From Candidatus Enterousia sp. (GTDB taxonomy: Bacteria > Pseudomonadota > Alphaproteobacteria > Rs-D84), in the NCBI GenBank assembly GCA_045643965.1, contig JAZRGB010000023.1, positions 12,137 through 76,136 of the forward strand: 64,000 nt of DNA. The letters run 5' to 3'. A program made the position numbers and the translations under genes. Of the stretch, positions 531 to 52,489 are shown piece by piece. Within the stretch, counting starts at the first letter, position 1. Every line of letters starts with the position of its first letter. Under the pieces are notes generated by a model. That model ran no database searches. It saw only the letters and a list, made by a program, of their open reading frames with translations, and was not told the DNA's origin.

Positions 531-605
531 AATTTAGAATGATTTAGATAAAAGCAAATCGAGAATCGTTGTCATGAATTGCTGACACAGCCCGTGTTTA
601 GCGAA
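531..605. repeat. Degenerate/partial copy of the palindromic hairpin element family (E1a)
   Basis: Type-I left terminal repeat aatttagaatgatttagataaaa, then the arm caaatcgagaatc shared with copies at 33.8 kb and 52.0 kb. The loop is truncated (gttgtcatgaattg) and the right arm is not complementary. Confidence 0.5.
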
Positions 606-712
606 GAAATTAAAGATAATGGTATAGATAAACGGGTTGGAAATGGCGTAGTGTACAAAAGTTACATGAGCCATCGCCAACCCGCTTTAGATATACCATT
701 AGATTTAATTTA
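606..712. repeat. Palindromic hairpin element, type-II termini (E1b)
   Basis: Left terminus gaaattaaagataatggtatagata, stem cgggttggaaatggc / gccatcgccaacccg, core GTAGTGTACAAAAGTTACATGA at 648-669, right terminus tatataccattagatttaattt. The right end overlaps the ftsK stop codon (tta at 710-712). Confidence 0.7.
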
Positions 713-2953
713 CAGGATGTGACGTTTGTTATTGGCGTCCGGTGCAGACACAATACCATCTGCTTCCATACGTTCCATAAATCCAGCAGCCTTGTTATAA
801 CCAATTTGTAATCTGCGTTGGATATATGAAATAGTTGGCTTTTTATCACGCAAAACACATTCTTTGGCACGTGCATACAGGTCACCATCTTTGTCACCAG
901 TACCACCAAAACCGCCACCCATCATATCACCACCACCAGATTCTGCAGAATCTGTAACACCTTCGGCATATTCTGGTTCACCCTGGGTACGCAAGAAATC
1001 ACCAATACGTTTTAGTTCTTTGTCATCAATAAATGCACCATGGATACGAACTGGGACACGCCCTGCTTCGCTGAACAACATATCACCCATTGCTAATAAT
1101 TGTTCTGCACCACCTTCGCCAAGACATGTTACACTGTCGATACGGCTACGTGCCTGGAACGAAATACGTGTTGGGAAGTTCGCTTTGATAACACCTGTAA
1201 TTGTTGTTGCGTCTGGACGCTGGGTCGCCATAACCAAGTGGATACCGGCTGCACGTGCCTTTTGTGCAATACGCTGAACACACGCTTCTACGTCTTTACG
1301 TGCCAAACTCATCAAGTCTGCAACCTCGTCAATAATGATTACCATATATGGCATATCTGACAAATCGACTTCTTGTGTTTCGAACAACAATTCGCCCGTT
1401 TCTTCATCAGTTCCAACAGCAACTTGCTTGGTAATCTTTTCGCCACTTTCACGTTTTTGTGCAGCGATTTCATTATAACTTTCGATATTACGTGCATTAA
1501 GAACTTGCAGTTGTTTATATCTTTCTTCCATTTCACGCACAGCCCATTTCAACGCATTAACTGCTGGTTCTGGTTCCAACTTTACAATTGGTGTAATCAA
1601 GTGTGGAATATCATCCCAGAACCCAAAGTCAACACCCTTTGGGTCGATAATAATCAGTTTACATTTATCAGGGGTAAAATGATAAACAATAGATGTAATA
1701 ATGGATTGAACAAATACAGACTTACCAGATCCAGTACGCCCTGCAACCAACATGTGTGGCATCTTGGCCAAATCGAAATACATTGGATTTCCACCAATAT
1801 CAACACCCAACGCCAATGGTATTTTATATTTAGATTCTATGAACAAATCATCTTCCATCAATCCACGATAACGCACAGTCTGACGCTTTAGATTTACCAT
1901 TTCAACACCGATTAATTGTGTCTTTGGAATATGTGCGATACGGATACTTTCTGTTGCCATTGCACGCGTCATATCTGTTACAGTTTTGCTGACATCTGCC
2001 ATACGCGTACCTTCATCTGGCATAAATTCAAACAATGTTACAATTGGTCCAGGTTTAATACCGACAACCTTGCCATGAACACCATATTGTGAAAACTTTA
2101 CTTCCATACTGCGGGCAATTTGTTTTAATTCTGGTGTCACTGAATATTTGCTAAAATTAGACTTTTCCAAGAATCTTGTATCTGGCAATTCGTATGTATT
2201 TGCACGTGCAACACGTGTTTTTACAGCCGCCACAGCAGCAGCTTTTTTTACACTACGCTTCTTTGGGGTGGCTACTTTTTCTTCTTCCGCTTCTTCTTGC
2301 TCTATTTCTTCCTCAACTTCATCTTCTTCATCTGAATCATCAGTTTGTGGCACATACTTTGTTAAATGGAACGCAGACGCCAACCATAATGCCCAACGTT
2401 TTAAAACCTTTAGTCCCCAACGAACATGTTCCCATTTTATGTGTAGTAACATTCCACCCATAATACAAAAAACAACCACACATAAAACACCAACCAACAC
2501 AGCACCAACCAAACCAATCAAATACACAACATCAGCTGATACCACCGCACCAAACATACCACCGTATGTTGAACGTGGTGCAATTAAACCAAATCCAATT
2601 ACCCCCATGCACAGTGTAATAAATCCACGCAATAAATTATATTCCGGCAGATTTTCATATTCCAACCCCAGTATTTGCACAATTCCCCATCGTGCAATAC
2701 ACAAAAACAAAAACAGCCCAGGTATTACACCAAATGCATAACGCACCATACCAACCAAATACCCCATCACAGATTGGTCACCAAATGTACTGGATACGCC
2801 AAAGCCATCTAAATAAGAATTATAAAACAGCATTGCAAACACAGCCCACAATGCAACACCCAAGACACATACGCCAAATACACGTTGTGCCAAACTTTTT
2901 AATGCACCAGACACACGTTCCGGTAAAAAATTAGACTTTCTTTTCCCTGCCAT
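710..2953 (-). CDS. ftsK: DNA translocase FtsK
   Basis: ORF 710..2995. N-terminal TM helices and an acidic linker are followed by a C-terminal FtsK/SpoIIIE ATPase domain (GRTGSGKSVFVQSIITSIVY, Walker A) and a gamma-domain-like tail. Start chosen at MAGKRKSN (2953); the upstream ATG at 2995 is also possible. Confidence 0.9.
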   Translation of the reverse strand: MAGKRKSNFLPERVSGALKSLAQRVFGVCVLGVALWAVFAMLFYNSYLDGFGVSSTFGDQSVMGYLVGMVRYAFGVIPGLFLFLCIARWGIVQILGLEYENLPEYNLLRGFITLCMGVIGFGLIAPRSTYGGMFGAVVSADVVYLIGLVGAVLVGVLCVVVFCIMGGMLLHIKWEHVRWGLKVLKRWALWLASAFHLTKYVPQTDDSDEEDEVEEEIEQEEAEEEKVATPKKRSVKKAAAVAAVKTRVARANTYELPDTRFLEKSNFSKYSVTPELKQIARSMEVKFSQYGVHGKVVGIKPGPIVTLFEFMPDEGTRMADVSKTVTDMTRAMATESIRIAHIPKTQLIGVEMVNLKRQTVRYRGLMEDDLFIESKYKIPLALGVDIGGNPMYFDLAKMPHMLVAGRTGSGKSVFVQSIITSIVYHFTPDKCKLIIIDPKGVDFGFWDDIPHLITPIVKLEPEPAVNALKWAVREMEERYKQLQVLNARNIESYNEIAAQKRESGEKITKQVAVGTDEETGELLFETQEVDLSDMPYMVIIIDEVADLMSLARKDVEACVQRIAQKARAAGIHLVMATQRPDATTITGVIKANFPTRISFQARSRIDSVTCLGEGGAEQLLAMGDMLFSEAGRVPVRIHGAFIDDKELKRIGDFLRTQGEPEYAEGVTDSAESGGGDMMGGGFGGTGDKDGDLYARAKECVLRDKKPTISYIQRRLQIGYNKAAGFMERMEADGIVSAPDANNKRHIL

Positions 2954-15172: not shown

Positions 15173-15206
15173 AAAAATCGGGAATTTTTATTCCCGATTT
15201 TTTTCT
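15173..15206. terminator. Bidirectional Rho-independent terminator
   Basis: aaaatcgggaatttttattcccgatttttt between the convergent OMP gene and trxB. Confidence 0.7.
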
Positions 15207-25614: not shown

Positions 25615-25687
25615 ACTCTCTTTCCCTACTAGCATACATTTATATATATTATATCACAAAATCGATAAAAAATAAAGACTTTATAAT

Positions 25688-25722
25688 AAAACATCGGGCA
25701 GTTGCCCGATGTTTTATTTTTT
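25688..25722 (-). terminator. Rho-independent terminator of plsY
   Basis: aaaacatcgggcagttgcccgatgtttt with a T-tract. The plsY stop codon lies in the tract. Confidence 0.7.
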
Positions 25723-33784: not shown

Positions 33785-33820
33785 AGCCTATGTATTATAT
33801 CATAAAAAAACACTAACCAC

Positions 33821-33910
33821 AAATTCATGATTAGTGAAAAAAGAAATCGGAAATCGTAGTGTACTTAACGCTACATAAGACTCCCGATTTGTTTTTAGAT
33901 GAATTATTAG
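33821..33910. repeat. Palindromic hairpin element (E2), type-I termini, degenerate left end
   Basis: aaattcatgattagtgaaaa | arm gaaatcggaaatc | core GTAGTGTACTTAACGCTACAT (33856-33876) | arm ctcccgattt | ttagatgaattattag. Confidence 0.65.
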
Positions 33911-33917
33911 CCAATAA

Positions 33918-34026
33918 ATAAAATAAATTAGAATGATTTAGATAAAAAGAAATCGGAAATCGTAGTGTACTTAACGCTACATGAGATTTCCGATTTATTT
34001 TTAGATGAATTATTATAATTTATTTT
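33918..34026. repeat. Palindromic hairpin element (E3), type-I termini, complete
   Basis: aaataaattagaatgatttagataaaaa | stem aaaaagaaatcggaaatc / gagatttccgatttattttt (18 bp) | core 33962-33983 | ttagatgaattattataatttatttt. The secB stop codon and its last two codons lie inside the right terminus. Confidence 0.75.
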
Positions 34027-34520
34027 GCTTGTTTCTGGGCATACAACGCAGCAAAATCCACTGGCTGCATTGCAAATGTTGGGAACCCAGATTCAGATGT
34101 CAAACGTGTAATCAATGCACGTACTGCTGGGAACAACAATGTTGGAACATCAATCAACAATGTACGTTTCTTTGCTTCTTCATCTTTTTCTTCTTCCATT
34201 TGAACCAGACCTGAATAAGTTGATTCAATCAAGAATATCGATTTATCGCCATTTTCCAGTTTTGAATGAACCTTGGTAATCAAATCAACCATGAACAAGT
34301 TATTTTCTGCACCCTTGATTTGAATATCAATATTGATTTCTAATTTTGCCTGACCATTGTCATTTTTAAAGAACAATTCTGGAACATTTGGGCTTTCAAA
34401 AGAAATGTCTTTCAAGTACTGAGATATAATATTAAATTTTGCGATTATAATTTCTCCTTGTGATATTTGTGGCGACCTTAATGTCTGGACTTGCGTCCCT
34501 GTTCTATGATAATATAGCAT
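34020..34520 (-). CDS. secB: Protein-export chaperone SecB
   Basis: KFNIISQYLKDISFESPNVPELF... matches the SecB family. The acidic C-terminus ends ...ALYAQKQAK. The upstream ORF start may be over-extended. Confidence 0.85.
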   Translation of the reverse strand: MLYYHRTGTQVQTLRSPQISQGEIIIAKFNIISQYLKDISFESPNVPELFFKNDNGQAKLEINIDIQIKGAENNLFMVDLITKVHSKLENGDKSIFLIESTYSGLVQMEEEKDEEAKKRTLLIDVPTLLFPAVRALITRLTSESGFPTFAMQPVDFAALYAQKQAK

Positions 34521-35970: not shown

Positions 35971-36446
35971 CAAAACGCGTATTGGGCATTGACCCAGGAT
36001 TATTACACACAGGTTGGGCAGTTATTGATACTGCTGGTTCATCACGAAAATATATTGCCAGCGGTGTAATTTTACCAAATCCAAAAATGGAAATGGCCGA
36101 CAGACTTGTTACAATTTTTCGTGAAGTGACAAAACTGTGCGAAACGTTCGACCCCGATGAATGCAGTATTGAAATAACATTTGTAAATAAAAATCCAAAA
36201 ACAACTTTGATTCTGGGTCATGCACGTTCTGCTGCAATTGTCGCTGTTGCAAACAAGGATATTCCAATATTTGAATACGAACCAAACAAGATAAAAAAAG
36301 CCCTGACTGGTGCGGGACACGCCGACAAAAGTTCAGTTGATAAAATGGTTCAAATTTTACTGCCAACGGCCCACCCAAAAACCGCAGACGAAGCAGACGC
36401 AATCGCAATCGCCCTGTCACACACAAACATGATGCGTATATTCTAA
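35967..36446 (+). CDS. ruvC: Crossover junction endodeoxyribonuclease RuvC
   Basis: VLGIDPGLLHTGWAVI (catalytic Asp), …EADAIAIAL…, 159 aa. Confidence 0.9.
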   Translation: MTKRVLGIDPGLLHTGWAVIDTAGSSRKYIASGVILPNPKMEMADRLVTIFREVTKLCETFDPDECSIEITFVNKNPKTTLILGHARSAAIVAVANKDIPIFEYEPNKIKKALTGAGHADKSSVDKMVQILLPTAHPKTADEADAIAIALSHTNMMRIF

Positions 36447-37156
36447 CAGGATTTTATTCTACAATAATTTTCTATGATTTTATTTCTAAGATTTTCGTCT
36501 TTTACTTTTTGCTGGGTATATTTAAACATTTCTTGTTCTGTCTGTTTATCCATATTTTGCAACAGATGCAAAATTGTCCAAGACAGTCTGGCATCTATAT
36601 CATATTTTTCACGAAACAAAACCTGAAATTTTAACGCACGCGAAATTAGTGACGGTTCTTTATACAATGTTCCAATTTTATCGTTTACTATCAGATAATT
36701 TTCCAATTCTATTGTTTTATTTGATGTAAACGCATAAAACGGTGCAGCAGCAAAAATTTGCTGTGACCCGTTATGATAAAACAGAGAATTTACATTAAAA
36801 TCAAAATACTGACCAACTATTGCAGCAGGCCAATCAAATTCTTTATTAAAAATATCAACTTCTGGGAAATTTTTTAAACCTAACTTTATCCCACCAAAAG
36901 AATTTTCCTGTTTCCATAAAACATTTTGATTTTGTGATAAATCTGGTTTCTTTGACAATATTAAATCAATGTCTTTTGGGTCAAACTGTGTGTTTGTCAG
37001 TTCAGATAAAACAGCATCACGAACAAATCCGCCGACTGCAAAACATTCTGTACTTTTTGGCAAATTCAAATCATTAACAACACCGTCAACCAACGGGGCA
37101 ATTTTCTTGTCCGCCCGACGAATTACACTTTCAACATCTGCCAGATACCATCTCAT
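36443..37156 (-). CDS. Nucleotidyltransferase, CCA-adding/poly(A) polymerase head-domain family (short, 237 aa)
   Basis: Pol-beta-type NTase signature CFAVGGFVRDAVL...DIDLIL (GGxVRD...DxD). It lacks the usual about 150 aa C-terminal body of a canonical Cca. Confidence 0.55.
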   Translation of the reverse strand: MRWYLADVESVIRRADKKIAPLVDGVVNDLNLPKSTECFAVGGFVRDAVLSELTNTQFDPKDIDLILSKKPDLSQNQNVLWKQENSFGGIKLGLKNFPEVDIFNKEFDWPAAIVGQYFDFNVNSLFYHNGSQQIFAAAPFYAFTSNKTIELENYLIVNDKIGTLYKEPSLISRALKFQVLFREKYDIDARLSWTILHLLQNMDKQTEQEMFKYTQQKVKDENLRNKIIENYCRIKSC

Positions 37157-37177
37157 TACAAATCCAACGATTGATAT

Positions 37178-37287
37178 AAAAATAAATTAGAATGATTTAG
37201 ATGCGGAACGGTCCCGATGGTGTAGTGTACAAAAGTTACATGAGCCATCGGGACCGTCCACAGATGAATTATTATAATTTATTTTTA
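37178..37287. repeat. Palindromic hairpin element (E4), type-I termini
   Basis: aaaataaattagaatgatttagat | stem ggaacggtcccgatggt / gccatcgggaccgtcc | core GTAGTGTACAAAAGTTACATGA (37222-37243) | cagatgaattattataatttattttt. It abuts the yebC stop (cta 37288-90). Confidence 0.75.
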
Positions 37288-38004
37288 CTAGGCAGCGGCT
37301 GTGAACACCTTCTGCACATCATCATTTGCATCCAATGCATCAACCAATTTTTCCAGTTTTGCATATGCTTCGTCATCCAAATCCATTGGCATATTTGGCA
37401 ACCATGTCAGTTCTGCCTGTTCTGGTTCGCCCAAGATATCTGCCAAATATTTTTGTGCGGTTACAAAATCTTCTGGTTTTGTTGTGATGATAAAGCCTTC
37501 TTCGGATGTTTCTAGATTATCCGCATTTGCTTCCATAATAATTTCCATCATTTCATCTTCGGTTTTGCCGATTGATGCAGGATACATAATCTGACCTGCA
37601 CGTGTAAACATGAACACAACAGAACCTTCTTCGCCCATATTACCGCCATTTTTACCAAAGATATTACGAATTTCTGGCACAGTACGACGTGGATTGTCTG
37701 TCAATGCTTCAACAATAACAGGCACAGCACCTGGGCCATAACCTTCGTATCTAACTGCTTCGTAACTTTCTGTATTTGCACCAGACGCTTTTTCAATTGC
37801 ACGTTTGATATTATCGTTTGGCATTGAATTTTTGCGTGCTGTCAAAATAGCCAAGCGTAATCTTGGGTTATTATCTGGGTTTTTATCGCCCAACTTGGCA
37901 GCCATTGTGATTTCACGTGCCAATTTTGTAAACAAACCACTGCGTGCGGCATCGGCTGCACCTTTTTTATGTTGGATATTATGCCATTTACTGTGTCCAC
38001 TCAT
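37288..38004 (-). CDS. yebC: YebC/PmpR family transcriptional regulator
   Basis: MSGHSKWHNIQHKKGAADAARSGLFTKLAREI, the canonical YebC N-terminus. 238 aa. Confidence 0.9.
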   Translation of the reverse strand: MSGHSKWHNIQHKKGAADAARSGLFTKLAREITMAAKLGDKNPDNNPRLRLAILTARKNSMPNDNIKRAIEKASGANTESYEAVRYEGYGPGAVPVIVEALTDNPRRTVPEIRNIFGKNGGNMGEEGSVVFMFTRAGQIMYPASIGKTEDEMMEIIMEANADNLETSEEGFIITTKPEDFVTAQKYLADILGEPEQAELTWLPNMPMDLDDEAYAKLEKLVDALDANDDVQKVFTAAA

Positions 38005-38055: not shown

Positions 38056-38646
38056 ATGATTGGAAAATTGCAAGGCATTGTTGACTATATCGGCGATGGA
38101 TTTATTATTTTGTTGGTTCATGGTGTCGGGTACAAGGTTTTTACCGCAGAATACCTGACCCACAAATCGACGGTGGAACTGTGGATTGAAACGATTGTCC
38201 GTGAAGATTCAATTCGCTTGTTTGGTTTTTCAACCCTGCAATCCCAAGATTTATTTAATATGCTGACTGGCGTATCTGGCGTTGGTCCAAAGGTTGCATT
38301 GGCAATAATGGGTACGATAAAATCTGATACTTTGATTTCTGCAATTGCAACAGGCGATGCAAAAACAATTGCCACCGCCCCAGGTGTTGGCAAAAAGATG
38401 GCTGAAAAAATTATCGTTGAATTAAAGAACAAGGTTGGCGGTGCATCTGCCACATTATTTGCATCTGACGTATCGGTTGGTGCCACATCATCTGCCCTGC
38501 CAGATTTATTAATGGCATTGGAATCATTGGGTTATCGCAGACTTGATATAATTGAAATGGCCCAAAAACTGGTAAATGAAAATCCAGATTACGATGTATC
38601 AAAACTGGTCCCAATGGCATTAAAAGAAATTAGTAAAGGAAAATAA
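38056..38646 (+). CDS. ruvA: Holliday junction branch migration complex subunit RuvA
   Basis: MIGKLQGIVDYIGDGFIILLVHGVGYKV (OB domain) and HhH motifs (LTGVSGVGPKVALAIM / PGVGKKMAEKII). Confidence 0.9.
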   Translation: MIGKLQGIVDYIGDGFIILLVHGVGYKVFTAEYLTHKSTVELWIETIVREDSIRLFGFSTLQSQDLFNMLTGVSGVGPKVALAIMGTIKSDTLISAIATGDAKTIATAPGVGKKMAEKIIVELKNKVGGASATLFASDVSVGATSSALPDLLMALESLGYRRLDIIEMAQKLVNENPDYDVSKLVPMALKEISKGK

Positions 38647-38674
38647 AAAATGCCCCAGTGGGGCATTTTTTATT
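38646..38674. terminator. Bidirectional Rho-independent terminator
   Basis: aaaaatgccccagtggggcatttttt between ruvA and the convergent ABC transporter gene. Confidence 0.75.
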
Positions 38675-42004: not shown

Positions 42005-42006
42005 AT

Positions 42007-42110
42007 AAAATTAAAGATAATGATATAGATACGAACAACCCCGAAACCGTAGTGTACAGAAGTTACATGAGGTTTCGGGGTTGTTTGTAGATATGCCATT
42101 AGATTTAATT
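42007..42110. repeat. Palindromic hairpin element (E5), type-II termini
   Basis: aaaattaaagataatgatatagat | stem acgaacaaccccgaaacc / ggtttcggggttgtttgt (18 bp) | core GTAGTGTACAGAAGTTACATGA (42049-42070) | agatatgccattagatttaatt. It abuts the fadD-like stop (tta 42111-13). Confidence 0.75.
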
Positions 42111-43691
42111 TTACTCGTGACGGTCTGGGTATTTGCCCTCAATCAAATTCTTGCGAACCTGATGATGTTTTACCTTTTGCGTACCGGTTAATGGCAAATC
42201 TTCGGTTGTCATTGCATAGTGTGTAACCCACTTGTAACTTGCAACCTTTTTATTTGCAGCAGCAATTTCCGCACCCAGCTGTTCTAATGTCACACCTTCT
42301 TCAACACTGAACACACCGTATGTAACAGTTTTATCTTTTACAACATGTTCAAATACTGCGACATTTTTTACACCTGGGATTGTGATAAACATGCCTTCCA
42401 GTTCGTCTGGATAAACATTTTTACCACTATCTAAAACGATAACCTGCTTTTTACGACCTGCAAAATGCAATTCGCCGTTTTTATCCATTGTAACCATGTC
42501 ACCTGTATTAAAGAATCCACGTTCATCAAAGATTTCTTTGTTGGCTTCTTCGTTGTTCAAGTAACCACCAAACACCTGATGACCACGCAACCACAGAACA
42601 CCAACGCCATCTTCGTTTTTATCACGAATTTCGCATTCATTGTTCAATGTTGGTGCACCGAACGCAAATGGGAAACGTTTCTTTGTTGGTTTGGAAATAC
42701 AGATTGGTCCAACTGTTTCTGTCAAACCATAGCCCTGAATAAATGTCAGCCCCAAACGTTCATAGAATGTTTCAACTTCTGGTTTTGTTGCAGCACCACC
42801 TGCAATCAACAGACGTGCACGACCACCAAACACATCCAGAATTGGTTTCTGAACCTTACGTACCAAGAAGCCAAGACCGATTTTGTTCAACACTTTACCA
42901 TACTTTAATACAAAAGATACCAATCCCCATTTCTTTTGTGCCTTTACATTATCGATGATTTTATTACGGAAAACTTCCCATAATCTTGGTACCGCAGGGA
43001 TAACTTGTGGACGGAATTTCTTAAAGTCAGCCATAATTTCTTTTGGATTGATTGTTGGCTGCAACAGAACGCCCGCACCATAATGCAGCGTTGCCAAGAT
43101 TTCAACTGCAAAACCAAACACATGATACATTGGCAAGAAACCATACAGATAATCCCCTGGTTTAATCCATTCTGCCATTGATTCCAAAGAATTTGTACAT
43201 TCAACAATATTAAAGTGTGTTAATGGCACAACCTTTGGCACACCGGTTGATCCAGATGTAAATGACATTGTTGCGATATCCAAAGATTCAACATTTGCAG
43301 GTTTTAATTCTGGTTTAACCTTGCCGTCTTTTTTGGTTATATCATAGAATTTAAATTTGCTGGTCTTGTACACAAAAGACTTTTCTGCACAAACCATATG
43401 ACAGTTTGTAGTTGATGTCATATTATCATATTCAAATGGAGTCAGATTTGTATCCAACAATAACACTGTTCCACCCAAATACCAAATTGCAAACATTGTA
43501 ATTGGAAATTCTGGGATATTGTGTGCCAAGATACCAACCACATCACCTTTTTTAACACCGGCTGCATCCAACGATGCGGCACGTGCCTTTACCAAGTTAA
43601 TGAAATCTTTGTATTTAACGCCCTCGCGAACCAGATATAAATTGTCTGGCCATGTTTGTGCTGTGCGTTCCAGTAACTGATACATATTCAT
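42111..43691 (-). CDS. Long-chain-fatty-acid--CoA ligase (AMP-binding enzyme family)
   Basis: AMP-binding motif MSFTSGSTGVPKVV, and …GYGLTET… / …NTGDM… family motifs. 526 aa. Confidence 0.8.
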   Translation of the reverse strand: MNMYQLLERTAQTWPDNLYLVREGVKYKDFINLVKARAASLDAAGVKKGDVVGILAHNIPEFPITMFAIWYLGGTVLLLDTNLTPFEYDNMTSTTNCHMVCAEKSFVYKTSKFKFYDITKKDGKVKPELKPANVESLDIATMSFTSGSTGVPKVVPLTHFNIVECTNSLESMAEWIKPGDYLYGFLPMYHVFGFAVEILATLHYGAGVLLQPTINPKEIMADFKKFRPQVIPAVPRLWEVFRNKIIDNVKAQKKWGLVSFVLKYGKVLNKIGLGFLVRKVQKPILDVFGGRARLLIAGGAATKPEVETFYERLGLTFIQGYGLTETVGPICISKPTKKRFPFAFGAPTLNNECEIRDKNEDGVGVLWLRGHQVFGGYLNNEEANKEIFDERGFFNTGDMVTMDKNGELHFAGRKKQVIVLDSGKNVYPDELEGMFITIPGVKNVAVFEHVVKDKTVTYGVFSVEEGVTLEQLGAEIAAANKKVASYKWVTHYAMTTEDLPLTGTQKVKHHQVRKNLIEGKYPDRHE

Positions 43692-51522: not shown

Positions 51523-51715
51523 GGCCCTCGATACACAATAATTAAAATCAAAAAAATCTTGTTCCGGCGATTTTTTAAGATTTTTATAATTGTATATTCT
51601 CGTATTCGCTCGGCATAAATGCCTGCGCGGCAACCGTAACGATTTTGCTTCGCTTTACTCGCAAAATCTACTTGTTGTCGAACGTGCATCTAACCCATAA
51701 GCCACGTCCACAGAA

Positions 51716-51746
51716 ACAAAAAACACCCCAAACGGGGTGTTTTTTA
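51716..51746 (-). terminator. Rho-independent terminator downstream of the tRNA genes (also functional-looking on the plus strand)
   Basis: aaaaaacaccccaaacggggtgttttttatt. Confidence 0.7.
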
Positions 51747-51749
51747 TTT

Positions 51750-51825
51750 CTGGTGGGAGTGGCTGGATTCGAACCAGCTCAGGCTTAAGCCAACAGATTT
51801 ACAGTCTGCCCCGGCTCTCCAACTC
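51750..51825 (-). tRNA. tRNA-Tyr(GTA)-like gene, 3' two-thirds canonical, 5' acceptor/D-arm region not canonical (possibly truncated or pseudo)
   Basis: The minus-strand sequence reads …gcaga CTGTAAA tctgt | tggcttaagcc (long variable arm) | gctgg TTCGAAT ccagc | cactccc A CCA. The anticodon GTA, class-II variable arm and T-arm are canonical. Only about 17 nt precede the anticodon stem, too few for an acceptor strand plus D-arm. The candidate 5' strand ggagttg pairs imperfectly with the 3' strand. Confidence 0.45.
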
Positions 51826-51843
51826 CGGCGCACGCCCAATCCT

Positions 51844-51917
51844 TGGTGCGGGCAGCGGGAATCGAACCCGCATTTCAAGCTTGGAAGGCTTGCATACTAG
51901 CCTTTGTACTATGCCCG
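51844..51917 (-). tRNA. tRNA-Gly(TCC)
   Basis: GCGGGCA TA GTAC AAAGGCTA GTAT G CAAGC CTTCCAA GCTTG AAAT GCGGG TTCGATT CCCGC TGCCCGC A CCA. All stems pair. Anticodon TCC. The 3' CCA is encoded. Confidence 0.85.
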
Positions 51918-51999
51918 CAACAAAATCAAAGCCCAGTGATTATATAATAAATGAAATCAAAATCAAGACATTTTTTACCAAAACAACATAATTAGCAAA

Positions 52000-52107
52000 G
52001 AAATTAAAGATAATGATTTAGATAAAAACAAATCGGGAATCGTAGTGTACAAACGCTACATGAATTGACCGGTACTGCTTTTAGATAAATTATTATCGGC
52101 AATTTTT
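52000..52107. repeat. Palindromic hairpin element (E6), type-II left terminus, degenerate (non-complementary right arm)
   Basis: gaaattaaagataatgatttagataaaa | arm acaaatcgggaatc | core GTAGTGTACAAACGCTACATGAATTG (52042-52067) | accggtactg | cttttagataaattattatcggcaattttt. Confidence 0.6.
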
Positions 52108-52109
52108 TA

Positions 52110-52213
52110 GAAATAAATTAGAATAGTTTAGATAAAAGTAGTGCCGGCAATGTAGTGTACAGACGCTACATAAATTGCCGGCACCGCTTTTAGATAAATT
52201 ATTATAATTTATT
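52110..52213. repeat. Palindromic hairpin element (E7), type-I termini
   Basis: gaaataaattagaatagtttagataaaa | stem gtagtgccggcaat / attgccggcaccgc | core GTAGTGTACAGACGCTACATAAAT (52152-52175) | ttttagataaattattataatttatttt. It abuts the stop codon (tta 52214-16) of the small Cys-rich gene. Confidence 0.75.
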
Positions 52214-52489
52214 TTATTTGATTGGCGGGAAACAATCACCCCCACTCTCTGGACAACAGTTATATCCTAAATCACCCATGTTGGTATAAACTTCACCAAC
52301 ACAACAACCATTTTTATCTGGTGTTGTGCCATCAAGACATTTCAACGATGGACCAAATGAAAACATATCAATATTTGCATATACTAAAATACCAAACATT
52401 GCACCCAACACAAAAGAAACAACCAAGGAAACCCATGATGTTGTTTTACTTGTTTTTTTCATTGTTGATTTTTTTGTAACTTTTTTCAT
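52214..52489 (-). CDS. Small membrane-anchored protein with a C-terminal 7-Cys module (paralog of 52503..53060)
   Basis: A basic N-terminus plus TM helix (WVSLVVSFVLGAMFGILVYA), then CLDGTTPDKNGCCVGEVYTNMGDLGYNCCPESGGDCFPPIK. The motif is shared with the neighbouring gene. Confidence 0.6.
   Translation of the reverse strand: MKKVTKKSTMKKTSKTTSWVSLVVSFVLGAMFGILVYANIDMFSFGPSLKCLDGTTPDKNGCCVGEVYTNMGDLGYNCCPESGGDCFPPIK

Follow-up and report, generated by a model that had tools for sequence, protein, structure and literature searches.

A stop-codon-flush palindromic repeat with exchangeable stems in the small genomes of Candidatus Enterousia

The hairpin behind yebC and the family it belongs to

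This report concerns a family of palindromic repeats in Candidatus Enterousia sp., and in particular its copy E4, which lies directly behind the yebC gene in a 64,000-nucleotide stretch of contig JAZRGB010000023.1 (positions 12,137 to 76,136; the whole stretch is hereafter called the window). The window contains five complete and three partial or chimeric copies, all on the plus strand. An earlier note on this DNA had quoted the stem arms of the five complete copies, and all five pairs are present in the window sequence. E4 itself is a nested hairpin of about 110 bp that scores 109.8 bits against a covariance model of the family. The locus reads as follows.

36443 to 37156, minus strand: 237-aa open reading frame (ORF) downstream of E4, beginning 20 nt past it, without a Pfam match
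37177 to 37287, plus strand: the whole of E4, written on its better-folding ("displayed") strand
37177 to 37198, plus strand: left outer arm, T1 type, TAAAAATAAATTAGAATGATTT, pairing with 37266-37287 via G-T and G-A positions
37199 to 37202, plus strand: left AGAT, a direct and not an inverted copy of 37262-37265
37203 to 37221, plus strand: left inner arm, class C, gcggaacggtcccgatggt, variable stem
37222 to 37243, plus strand: apical module GTAGTGTACAAAAGTTACATGA, that is GTAGTGTAC-AAAA-GTTACATGA, with a 5-bp mini-hairpin GUGUA/UACAU
37244 to 37261, plus strand: right inner arm, gccatcgggaccgtccac, variable stem
37262 to 37287, plus strand: right AGAT (37262-37265) and right outer arm (37266-37287), AGATGAATTATTATAATTTATTTTTA
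37288 to 38004, minus strand: yebC/TACO1-family gene, whose TAG stop codon (37288-37290) adjoins E4

Because yebC lies on the minus strand, its mRNA carries the reverse complement of the displayed E4. On this gene-sense strand the right AGAT and outer arm read TAAAAATAAATTATAATAA, which contains several TAA triplets. E4 is intercistronic, since the 237-aa ORF on the same strand begins only 20 nt after it.

All members follow one plan: an A/T-rich outer stem, AGAT on both arms, a variable inner stem of 17-19 bp and an invariant apical module, GTAGTGTAC-N4-5-GYTACATGA, which forms a loop of 22-24 nt whose mini-hairpin is closed by an invariant G-U pair. AGAT opposite AGAT in the hairpin gives A-T, G.A, A.G and T-A; over 60 aligned copies its A and G are invariant and its T nearly so, and T1 arms have this opposition once, T2 arms twice. 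The terminal arms, which come in at least these two types, are imperfect inverted repeats of 23-26 bp, contain the -10-like boxes TATAAT and TAGAAT and are, by inspection, not self-complementary. The most conserved part of the element is its interior and not its termini. Where termini and loop had both been called conserved, the loop is indeed invariant, but the termini are not simple inverted repeats and AGAT stands in direct orientation on both arms. With up to three mismatches, the loop motif occurs five times in the window against 0.01 expected.

The host range is narrow. Enterousia belongs to the order Rs-D84 and has genomes of about 0.75-1.0 Mb with a coding density of ~90% (PMC12306168). 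When one genome per species was scanned with the loop pattern GTAGTGTACN{4,5}GYTACAT, at least 119 stretches were recovered, nearly all from gut metagenome-assembled genomes (MAGs) of Candidatus Enterousia or uncultured Alphaproteobacteria; the few matches in other phyla lack arms and outer repeats. The apical module was the search key, so that loop conservation in these stretches (L001-L119) is partly by construction. In a search anchored on the left outer arm, the loop follows in 142 of 150 sites, which come from the same pattern-selected loci and are not fully independent; the other eight are remnants or chance matches. Applied to 80 independently fetched yebC loci, the covariance model finds the same architecture, with modest loop variants in distant relatives. 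In the window, Rfam at its gathering threshold reports only two tRNAs and the element matches no family; at E <= 10 it comes closest to generic miRNA-precursor hairpins, whose threshold of 100 bits it misses with a score of 28. The element was not found in plasmid and phage collections, and 35 loop-pattern matches in viral contigs, none with arms or outer repeats, are ascribed to chance. By eye, no convincing match to dif/Xer, IHF sites, CtrA boxes or GANTC methylation sites is seen.

Pairing, strand asymmetry and position

Folded as RNA, E4 reaches -55.7 kcal/mol (z = -13), a value equalled by none of 200 shuffled sequences; as DNA it reaches -28.4 kcal/mol (z = -9.5), again with no shuffle equal. 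Watson-Crick pairs make up 89.6% of the inner stem across 116 distinct but related covariance-model matches from many MAGs, and permuting the partners lowers this to 45%; a comparison with shuffled controls had been set beforehand as the refuting test of stem complementarity. The outer stem is paired at 87% (97% including G-U) against 68% permuted, and over the whole structure 94.7% of cells are paired, compared with 71.5% after shuffling and 38-40% with the partner slid. Changes on both sides are found in 36 of the 38 pairs; among the 60 aligned copies, 28 of the 38 predicted pairs show such double-sided changes. Moreover, the similarity of a segment between copies correlates with that of its pairing partner on the other arm at r = 0.60-0.86, and with that of the adjacent segment on the same arm at r = 0.26-0.35. 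Some process therefore preserves pairing above linear linkage, and the earlier argument that ordinary decay of a miniature inverted-repeat transposable element (MITE) would not behave in this way is borne out. The companion claim, that selection acts on structure and not on sequence, stands in part: pairing is kept family-wide, but the stems are drawn from a limited repertoire shared across species and do not drift freely.

The two strands are not equivalent. In 108 of 111 copies the more stable fold is that of the displayed strand, which is antisense to the upstream gene and corresponds to the leading-strand template; it averages -50.6 kcal/mol and the opposite strand -39.7 kcal/mol, an advantage of about 11 kcal/mol. 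This advantage comes from the fixed AGAT/AGAT opposition, the outer-stem G-T pairs, whose positions differ between arm types, and the apical G-U closing pair; on the gene-sense strand the fixed features of outer arms and apex become C.U, U.C and A.C mismatches. In the outer arms G-T outnumbers A-C by 135 to 18, and G-A outnumbers C-T by 304 to 5 (GA/AG against CT/TC). From these asymmetries it is clear that a constraint acts on one strand in particular or on the sequence of one arm, and their persistence argues against simple homogenisation of one arm by the other. Intra-palindrome conversion, which had been offered as an explanation of the paired stems, cannot for this reason be the whole story, since both the AGAT/AGAT and the G-T asymmetries persist. 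Mismatches of the inner stem, in turn, show no G-U excess that would mark an RNA strand (48 against 51), a strand symmetry that is as expected for recent decay.

Position is as constrained as structure. The remaining copies in the window are these.

about 540 to 575, plus strand: E0, remnant with the end of the left outer arm and a class A left arm, its loop mostly deleted
604 to 714, plus strand: E1b, complete, T2 outer arms, class E stem; ftsK stop codon (710-712) inside the element
33827 to 33907, plus strand: E2, partial, both arms and loop, without the left outer arm (41 bits, model positions 16-95)
33918 to 34028, plus strand: E3, complete, T1 arms, A/T-rich class A stem; secB stop codon (34020-34022) inside the element
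42005 to 42114, plus strand: E5, complete, T2 arms, class D stem; stop codon of an AMP-binding enzyme gene (42111-42113) inside the element
about 52000 to 52105, plus strand: E6, chimeric, left arm of class A and right arm class-B-like, the arms not complementary
52108 to 52217, plus strand: E7, complete, T1 arms, class B stem; stop codon of a 91-aa ORF (52214-52216) inside the element

The stems of these copies had been described as GC-rich in AT-rich surroundings; with a window G+C of 33-41% this is true of four of the five complete copies, but the E3 stem has only about 22% G+C by our own count. The upstream genes, namely ftsK, secB, yebC, the AMP-binding enzyme gene and the 91-aa ORF (52214-52489, minus strand, without a Pfam match), are scattered over 52 kb. 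Just to the left of the E6/E7 pair lie two neighbouring tRNA genes (51754-51837 and 51847-51918, minus strand), with a terminator-like hairpin at 51711-51752.

Family-wide, 98 of 118 copies have an upstream ORF of at least 80 codons whose stop falls between -8 and +13 of the element start. The offsets of these stops concentrate at the TAA triplets that the outer arm contains, and TAA is the stop codon in 94 of these 98; counted separately, it terminates 73 of the 77 flush genes and 371 of the 469 others. The final residues of the protein, together with its stop codon, come from the element itself in about 45% of cases.

The polarity of the element is likewise fixed. Written as in the window, on the plus strand, it has a minus-strand gene as its right-hand neighbour in about 104 of 115 cases; the flanking genes run (+,-) in 52 and (-,-) in 44, and diverge in one or two. 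Copies on one contig always share a strand (seven of seven in the window). When the element lies between convergent genes, the flush gene has a sense-strand GC skew of +0.22 and the other gene one of -0.06 (48 of 49 pairs). Skew of the lagging type is seen in a single flush gene out of 77 but in 178 of the 469 others, which are bimodally distributed; 89 of 93 loci, and the window throughout, have a C-rich displayed strand. It follows from these skew counts that the element follows leading-strand genes only.

Inner stems are usually replaced wholesale at orthologous sites

The stems had been said to differ completely between copies. They do change from copy to copy, but they also fall into recurring classes: the 118 copies carry 95 distinct left arms in 29 clusters, ten of which have at least three members, each across many genomes, and every window stem has one to nine near-identical relatives in other genomes. 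Within a genome, the stems of all copies differ, so that there is no sign of a recent burst.

What happens at a single site becomes apparent from 141 pairs of copies that follow orthologous genes, a pair being counted when its 300-nt coding flanks are at least 70% identical. Stem identity is unrelated to flank identity (rho 0.11, p = 0.21), and in 114 of the pairs the stems are as unrelated as those of random pairs (0.40 against a background of 0.41). Even with flanks at least 85% identical, 26 of 37 pairs have unrelated stems, and flanks that are 94% identical can still bear them. The ten pairs that keep their stem keep it better than the coding flank (0.94 against 0.85). Outer arms, for their part, are often retained, with identities of up to 1.00, where the stems are unrelated (0.24-0.35). 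Since stem identity is independent of the flank, the diversity at a site arises mainly through replacement of the whole module and not through compensatory mutation in place.

The yebC site is a good example. In close relatives, with YebC identities of 97-85%, the gene is followed by class C (as in the window), B, J or G stems; a third type of outer arm and an "H" class common to a whole clade are also found among them, and some have one-outer-arm remnants, an ordinary terminator alone or no element at all. Footprints of deletion after the yebC stop (L182, L197, L177, L196, L153 and L130) take the form of solitary gene-distal outer arms, TCATTCTAATTTATTTT, or of both outer arms joined with the hairpin gone, which shows that elements are lost through internal deletion. 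In element-free relatives (L139, L140, L150, L151, L156, L195; L145, L152, L160; L134, L135, L142) the space from the yebC stop to the terminator is filled by repeats, which occupy the first ~60 nt after the stop and consist of tandem heptamers, (GGTTAGT)n or (AGAGTTC/AAAGTAC)n, or are of the AGAGAGCA type.

Chimeras whose arms come from different stem classes are consistent with crossover in the conserved loop. Non-complementary ones are rare and mostly degenerate tandem copies: E6, L005 (position 4367), L035 (3336) and L049. Tandem arrays have a characteristic layout, in which every copy but the one beside the stop codon is incomplete (L004, L007, L031, L036, L103, L107, L113 and others; in the window 540-714 and 33827-34028). 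Copies farther along are missing the outer arm on the side of the gene and most of the stem arm on that side; they retain the loop, the other arm, the outer arm and a tail, and the units of one array carry different stem classes. These tails recur with each unit. A motif of the tails, GTGATTAG/CTAATCAC, looks related to the yebC spacer repeats. A small terminator hairpin, CCGCTAATCACGAATTTGTGGTTAGTGTTTTTTT, often comes next on the gene-sense strand after an element or array, as at window ~33786-33826 (minus strand), where it follows E2; in another lineage CCCACCGCAAGGGGGTGGG takes this place. L002 and L067 show such tails as well.

The element appears not to be simply a terminator. For 14 of 106 copies, no more than 40 nt separate the element from the start of the following same-strand ORF, as in the step from yebC to the 237-aa ORF and in a ribosomal-protein-like operon; 18 of 106 have a separate canonical terminator within 90 nt, and in 28 of 106 a further partial copy comes after the element. 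These intra-operon positions and separate terminators suggest that it often lies inside the transcript. A/T tracts accompany the stem classes A, B, E, F, J and K and not C, D, G, H and I, which are also without a U-tract. Canonical bidirectional terminators are found in the window at 15173-15202, 25685-25718 and 38642-38674 (e.g. AAAAATCGGGAAT/ATTCCCGATTTTT); they resemble the stem classes with A-tract and T-tract in composition and have no stem 9-mer in common with the elements.

Three further ideas were tried and set aside. Insertion of the loop into pre-existing terminators, which would make the stems a product of the target, is rejected, because not one of 56 9-mers from the top of the stem is found as an ordinary hairpin with a short loop, and because outer arms travel with the stems. 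The inner hairpin as a separate mobile unit that duplicates AGAT within an outer palindrome is weakened by the near-absence of "empty" outer hairpins, of which we found one case, in L005. An antisense sRNA gene with its own sigma-70 promoter could be imagined from an invariant nAnAAT box in the left arm, but by our reading the candidate -35 boxes, located in the upstream tails, lie only 13-15 nt away and the region upstream of the left arm is not conserved between loci.

What the hairpin may do and how it may spread

We read the element as a lineage-specific palindromic hairpin of 3'-untranslated regions (3'-UTRs), akin to repetitive extragenic palindromes (REPs) and Rickettsia palindromic elements (RPEs), in which pairing is maintained while stems are swapped by conversion at the conserved flanks and loop. 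This reading we put at a probability of roughly 0.55; how the element spreads and what it does we infer from its structure and placement. It would be co-transcribed as a 3'-UTR or intercistronic hairpin. Its function would probably require stem pairing alone, which would leave the stem sequence free to differ between copies, and would most likely be REP-like: a barrier to 3' exonucleases, a partial terminator, or a structure near the terminating ribosome. A function as an RNA or DNA hairpin is plausible. The conserved outer arms and loop may act as short homology anchors through which ectopic gene conversion exchanges whole inner hairpins, and products with mismatched arms would then be eliminated or corrected. 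The element may persist because the paired hairpin is useful, as REPs are, or alternatively as a well-tolerated selfish palindrome. Its strict replication polarity suggests a single-stranded DNA (ssDNA) step in spread or survival, either of which may depend on which strand is single-stranded at the fork. A dedicated transposase is apparently not needed today.

Several observations weigh against this reading. With respect to the upstream gene, it is the antisense strand for which the hairpin is optimised, and this is unexpected for a function in sense RNA and suggests an ssDNA or antisense role; the putative RNA role is itself deduced from sequence. With no more than about 23 bp of homology to work on, gene conversion is inefficient, and by itself it does not account for the absence from lagging-strand genes. 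A need for pairing alone does not predict the cross-species conservation of sequence within stem classes, and the reading does not account for arrays whose only complete copy is stop-proximal. Finally, the copies are related and not phylogenetically independent, so that the shuffle statistics overstate significance and are not probabilities; slid-partner controls and the segment analysis address this kinship.

Mobile DNA provides one set of competing explanations, and an IS200/IS605-type transposase that recognises a hairpin had been among the possibilities raised by the earlier note. Palindrome-associated transposable elements (PATEs) derived from IS200/IS605 make no target duplication, have an orientation tied to the ssDNA of the lagging-strand template, and have ends that are recognised as hairpins. 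Our element shares the orientation bias relative to replication and the lack of duplication, and could be a non-autonomous ssDNA transposon of this or of the RAYT-REPIN type, whose Y1/HUH enzyme would read the hairpin, with its invariant loop and AGAT sites, as folded in the lagging-strand template and place it 3' of a TAA-like target. The strict polarity and restriction to leading-strand genes, the junction that is always at TAA, the direct AGAT repeats on either side of the inner hairpin and the stem variation, which is allowed if only the fold is read, all agree with this, as does the absence of a target-site duplication (TA or a longer repeat) at the borders of E4 and E5, the two copies inspected, where A/T-rich ends limit resolution. 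Still, we think such a transposon unlikely. PATEs have separate left and right end hairpins and a Y1 transposase, whereas the element is one long continuous hairpin, not two subterminal ones, and phmmer (E <= 10) with RAYT 4ER8, IS608, ISDra2 and Sulfolobus TnpA as queries found no Y1 match among 11,480 ORFs in 1.84 Mb of related loci, a limited sample of ~two genome equivalents. Retention of a transposase would also seem unlikely in genomes of <1 Mb. The copies of one genome are all different, with no sign of a burst, and junctions are conserved across species at orthologous sites while the stems differ, which replacement in place fits better. GTAG/CTAC in the apical module recalls REP tags (PMC3733652), but GTAG stands at the apex and not at the foot. 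At yebC we found no clean pair of empty and filled sites; element-free relatives have diverged spacers or remnants, which leaves the borders unfixed. If the element were an ordinary MITE that owes its movement to a DDE transposase acting in trans (e.g. of the IS630/Tc1 type, with TA duplication), its internal palindrome would be incidental, and the imperfect terminal inverted repeats of 23-26 bp in at least two types, the size of about 110 bp and the multiple and partial copies would be accounted for. With neither TA nor any other duplication at E4/E5, no longer element with the same termini in 880 kb around the copies, a near-absolute bias of orientation and strand, and conservation centred on the interior, this account has hardly any chance of being right. 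Integron attC sites are hairpins of 57-141 bp directly after an ORF, with conserved structure, one functional folded strand and a placement in which replication matters. The element resembles them in its site, fixed orientation and reliance on structure rather than sequence, and one may ask whether it is a folded ssDNA recombination site of this kind, used by a host recombinase, or the product of RNA-templated copying of 3'-UTR fragments into the nascent lagging strand at stops. The better-folding strand on the leading-strand template, the exchange of inner hairpins like cassettes between retained outer arms, and arrays that are truncated gene-proximally but retain the distal end and a downstream terminator "tail" speak for it. 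However, the R''/L''...L'/R' cores (RYYYAAC / GTTRRRY) are not in the element consensus, whose sole GTT-containing motif, GTTACAT, does not fit GTTRRRY by our own reading. Whereas attC sites form cassette arrays next to intI/attI and have no counterpart to the invariant apical module, the element follows scattered housekeeping genes such as ftsK, secB and yebC; neither a recombinase nor a reverse transcriptase has been identified, and "empty" outer hairpins are rare. In this specific form we regard the idea as highly improbable. A so far undescribed, replication-coupled, strand-specific process of copying or exchange in genomes of <1 Mb without a dedicated transposase, whether at an attC-like site dispersed over the stop codons of leading-strand genes or through RNA- or cDNA-templated insertion of 3'-UTR pieces into the nascent lagging strand, has a small but real chance. 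If true, it would jointly account for the TAA-flush junctions, the leading-strand restriction and the better fold on the leading-strand template, and also for the gene-proximally truncated arrays with tails and the cassette-like swapping of stems.

The other explanations dispense with copying between sites or with selection. A purely functional RNA hairpin, be it terminator, insulator or 3' stabiliser, that evolves in place by compensatory mutation would sit directly after ORFs, show strong covariation and occupy orthologous sites for long periods, all of which is seen, and many stems are flanked by an A-tract and a T-tract like the bidirectional terminators of the window. The independence of stem identity from flank divergence, and the sharing of classes by different loci and species, nonetheless tell against it, as do the missing G-U excess of inner-stem mismatches on either strand, the weaker fold of the sense strand, the copies inside operons and the stem classes that lack a U-tract, and we consider it quite unlikely. 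A neutral long palindrome, kept complementary only by intrastrand template switching (quasi-palindrome correction) and under no selection as a hairpin, would explain why linkage is far tighter between partner segments than between neighbouring ones and why the inner-stem mismatches are strand-symmetric. Such correction would erase the AGAT/AGAT opposition and the fixed G-T and G-A positions, which persist family-wide, and it explains neither the stop-codon position nor the leading-strand restriction. Retained elements are, in addition, more conserved than their coding flanks, and by extrapolation of the window density about 70-100 useless copies would have to survive in a genome of <1 Mb with ~90% coding density (PMC12306168), which is unlikely; we give this explanation very little credence.

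Among known systems the element is filed as a repetitive extragenic palindrome in kind but as a member of no named family; in its working it is most like REPs and their bacterial interspersed mosaic elements (BIMEs) and the RPEs, with resemblances to Correia, attC and IS200/IS605-derived elements. RPEs are ancient palindromic repeats of 100-150 bp, in several sub-families, that occur in reduced alphaproteobacterial genomes and can overlap coding sequence. By description, they share with the element its size, its type of host and the contribution of residues to proteins, and differ in that they insert in frame inside genes and RNA genes. To our knowledge they have no transposase, no stop-codon or leading-strand rule has been reported for them, and the combination of a hypervariable paired stem with an invariant loop has not been described. 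REPs, for their part, lie mostly downstream of ORFs and form sub-families with alternative complementary stems and G-T pairs (PMC3733652); those that lie no more than 15 nt from a stop codon influence translation (PMC12306157). REP/BIME/REPIN sequences (GTAG- or CGTC-tagged; PMC3733652) resemble the element as high-copy extragenic palindromes downstream of ORFs between unidirectional or convergent genes, in their alternative stem sub-families and G-T pairs and in their mosaic organisation, and some REP dimers sit within larger palindromes. REPs are, however, only 20-40 bp long with stems of 6-13 bp, against about 110 bp and a variable stem of 17-19 bp here, and their GTAG/CGTC tag is unpaired at the foot, whereas GTAG/CTAC lies inside our apical module by the top of the stem. 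Nor is the element a REP dimer, since neither arm is palindromic by itself; nearly every copy abuts or overlaps the stop, only genes on the leading strand carry it, and no RAYT was found in the 1.84 Mb of related loci. For the Correia elements of Neisseria and for ERIC/IRU-type sequences, the comparison draws on PMC2229807 and on general knowledge. They too are palindromes of about 100-150 bp with terminal inverted repeats and can carry -10-like boxes; they are co-transcribed as long RNA hairpins that alter mRNA processing and stability, as the element may be. Correia elements duplicate TA, insert in either orientation and have a conserved interior, whereas in our element no duplication was seen, polarity is absolute and the interior stem varies.

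The position at the stop codon, the restriction to the leading strand and the switch-like replacement of stems go beyond the earlier note and seem to us most interesting; the fixed orientation, too, is an addition to it. The combination of stop-codon targeting with replication polarity is apparently undescribed. Each copy lies just where translation of a leading-strand gene ends, which indicates either a genuine role at mRNA 3' ends or an unusually constrained selfish element, and at the density of the window these hairpins would take up about 1% of an already minimal genome of roughly 0.9 Mb with 90% coding density. The family is also a large natural set of stems under a pairing constraint (95 distinct left arms in 118 copies). 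As the repeats supply stop codons and C-terminal residues, gene calling is affected. A practical consequence for assembly is that they coincide with contig ends in MAGs of the clade, whose assemblies the repeat appears to break. Contigs L001, L032, L045, L079 and L086 end inside an element. A different G+C-rich repeat, CCCCTCC..GGTGGAGGGG..GGGGAGGG, was seen at the 3' flanks of genes, in L123 at ~1136-1200 and in L071 downstream of the element.

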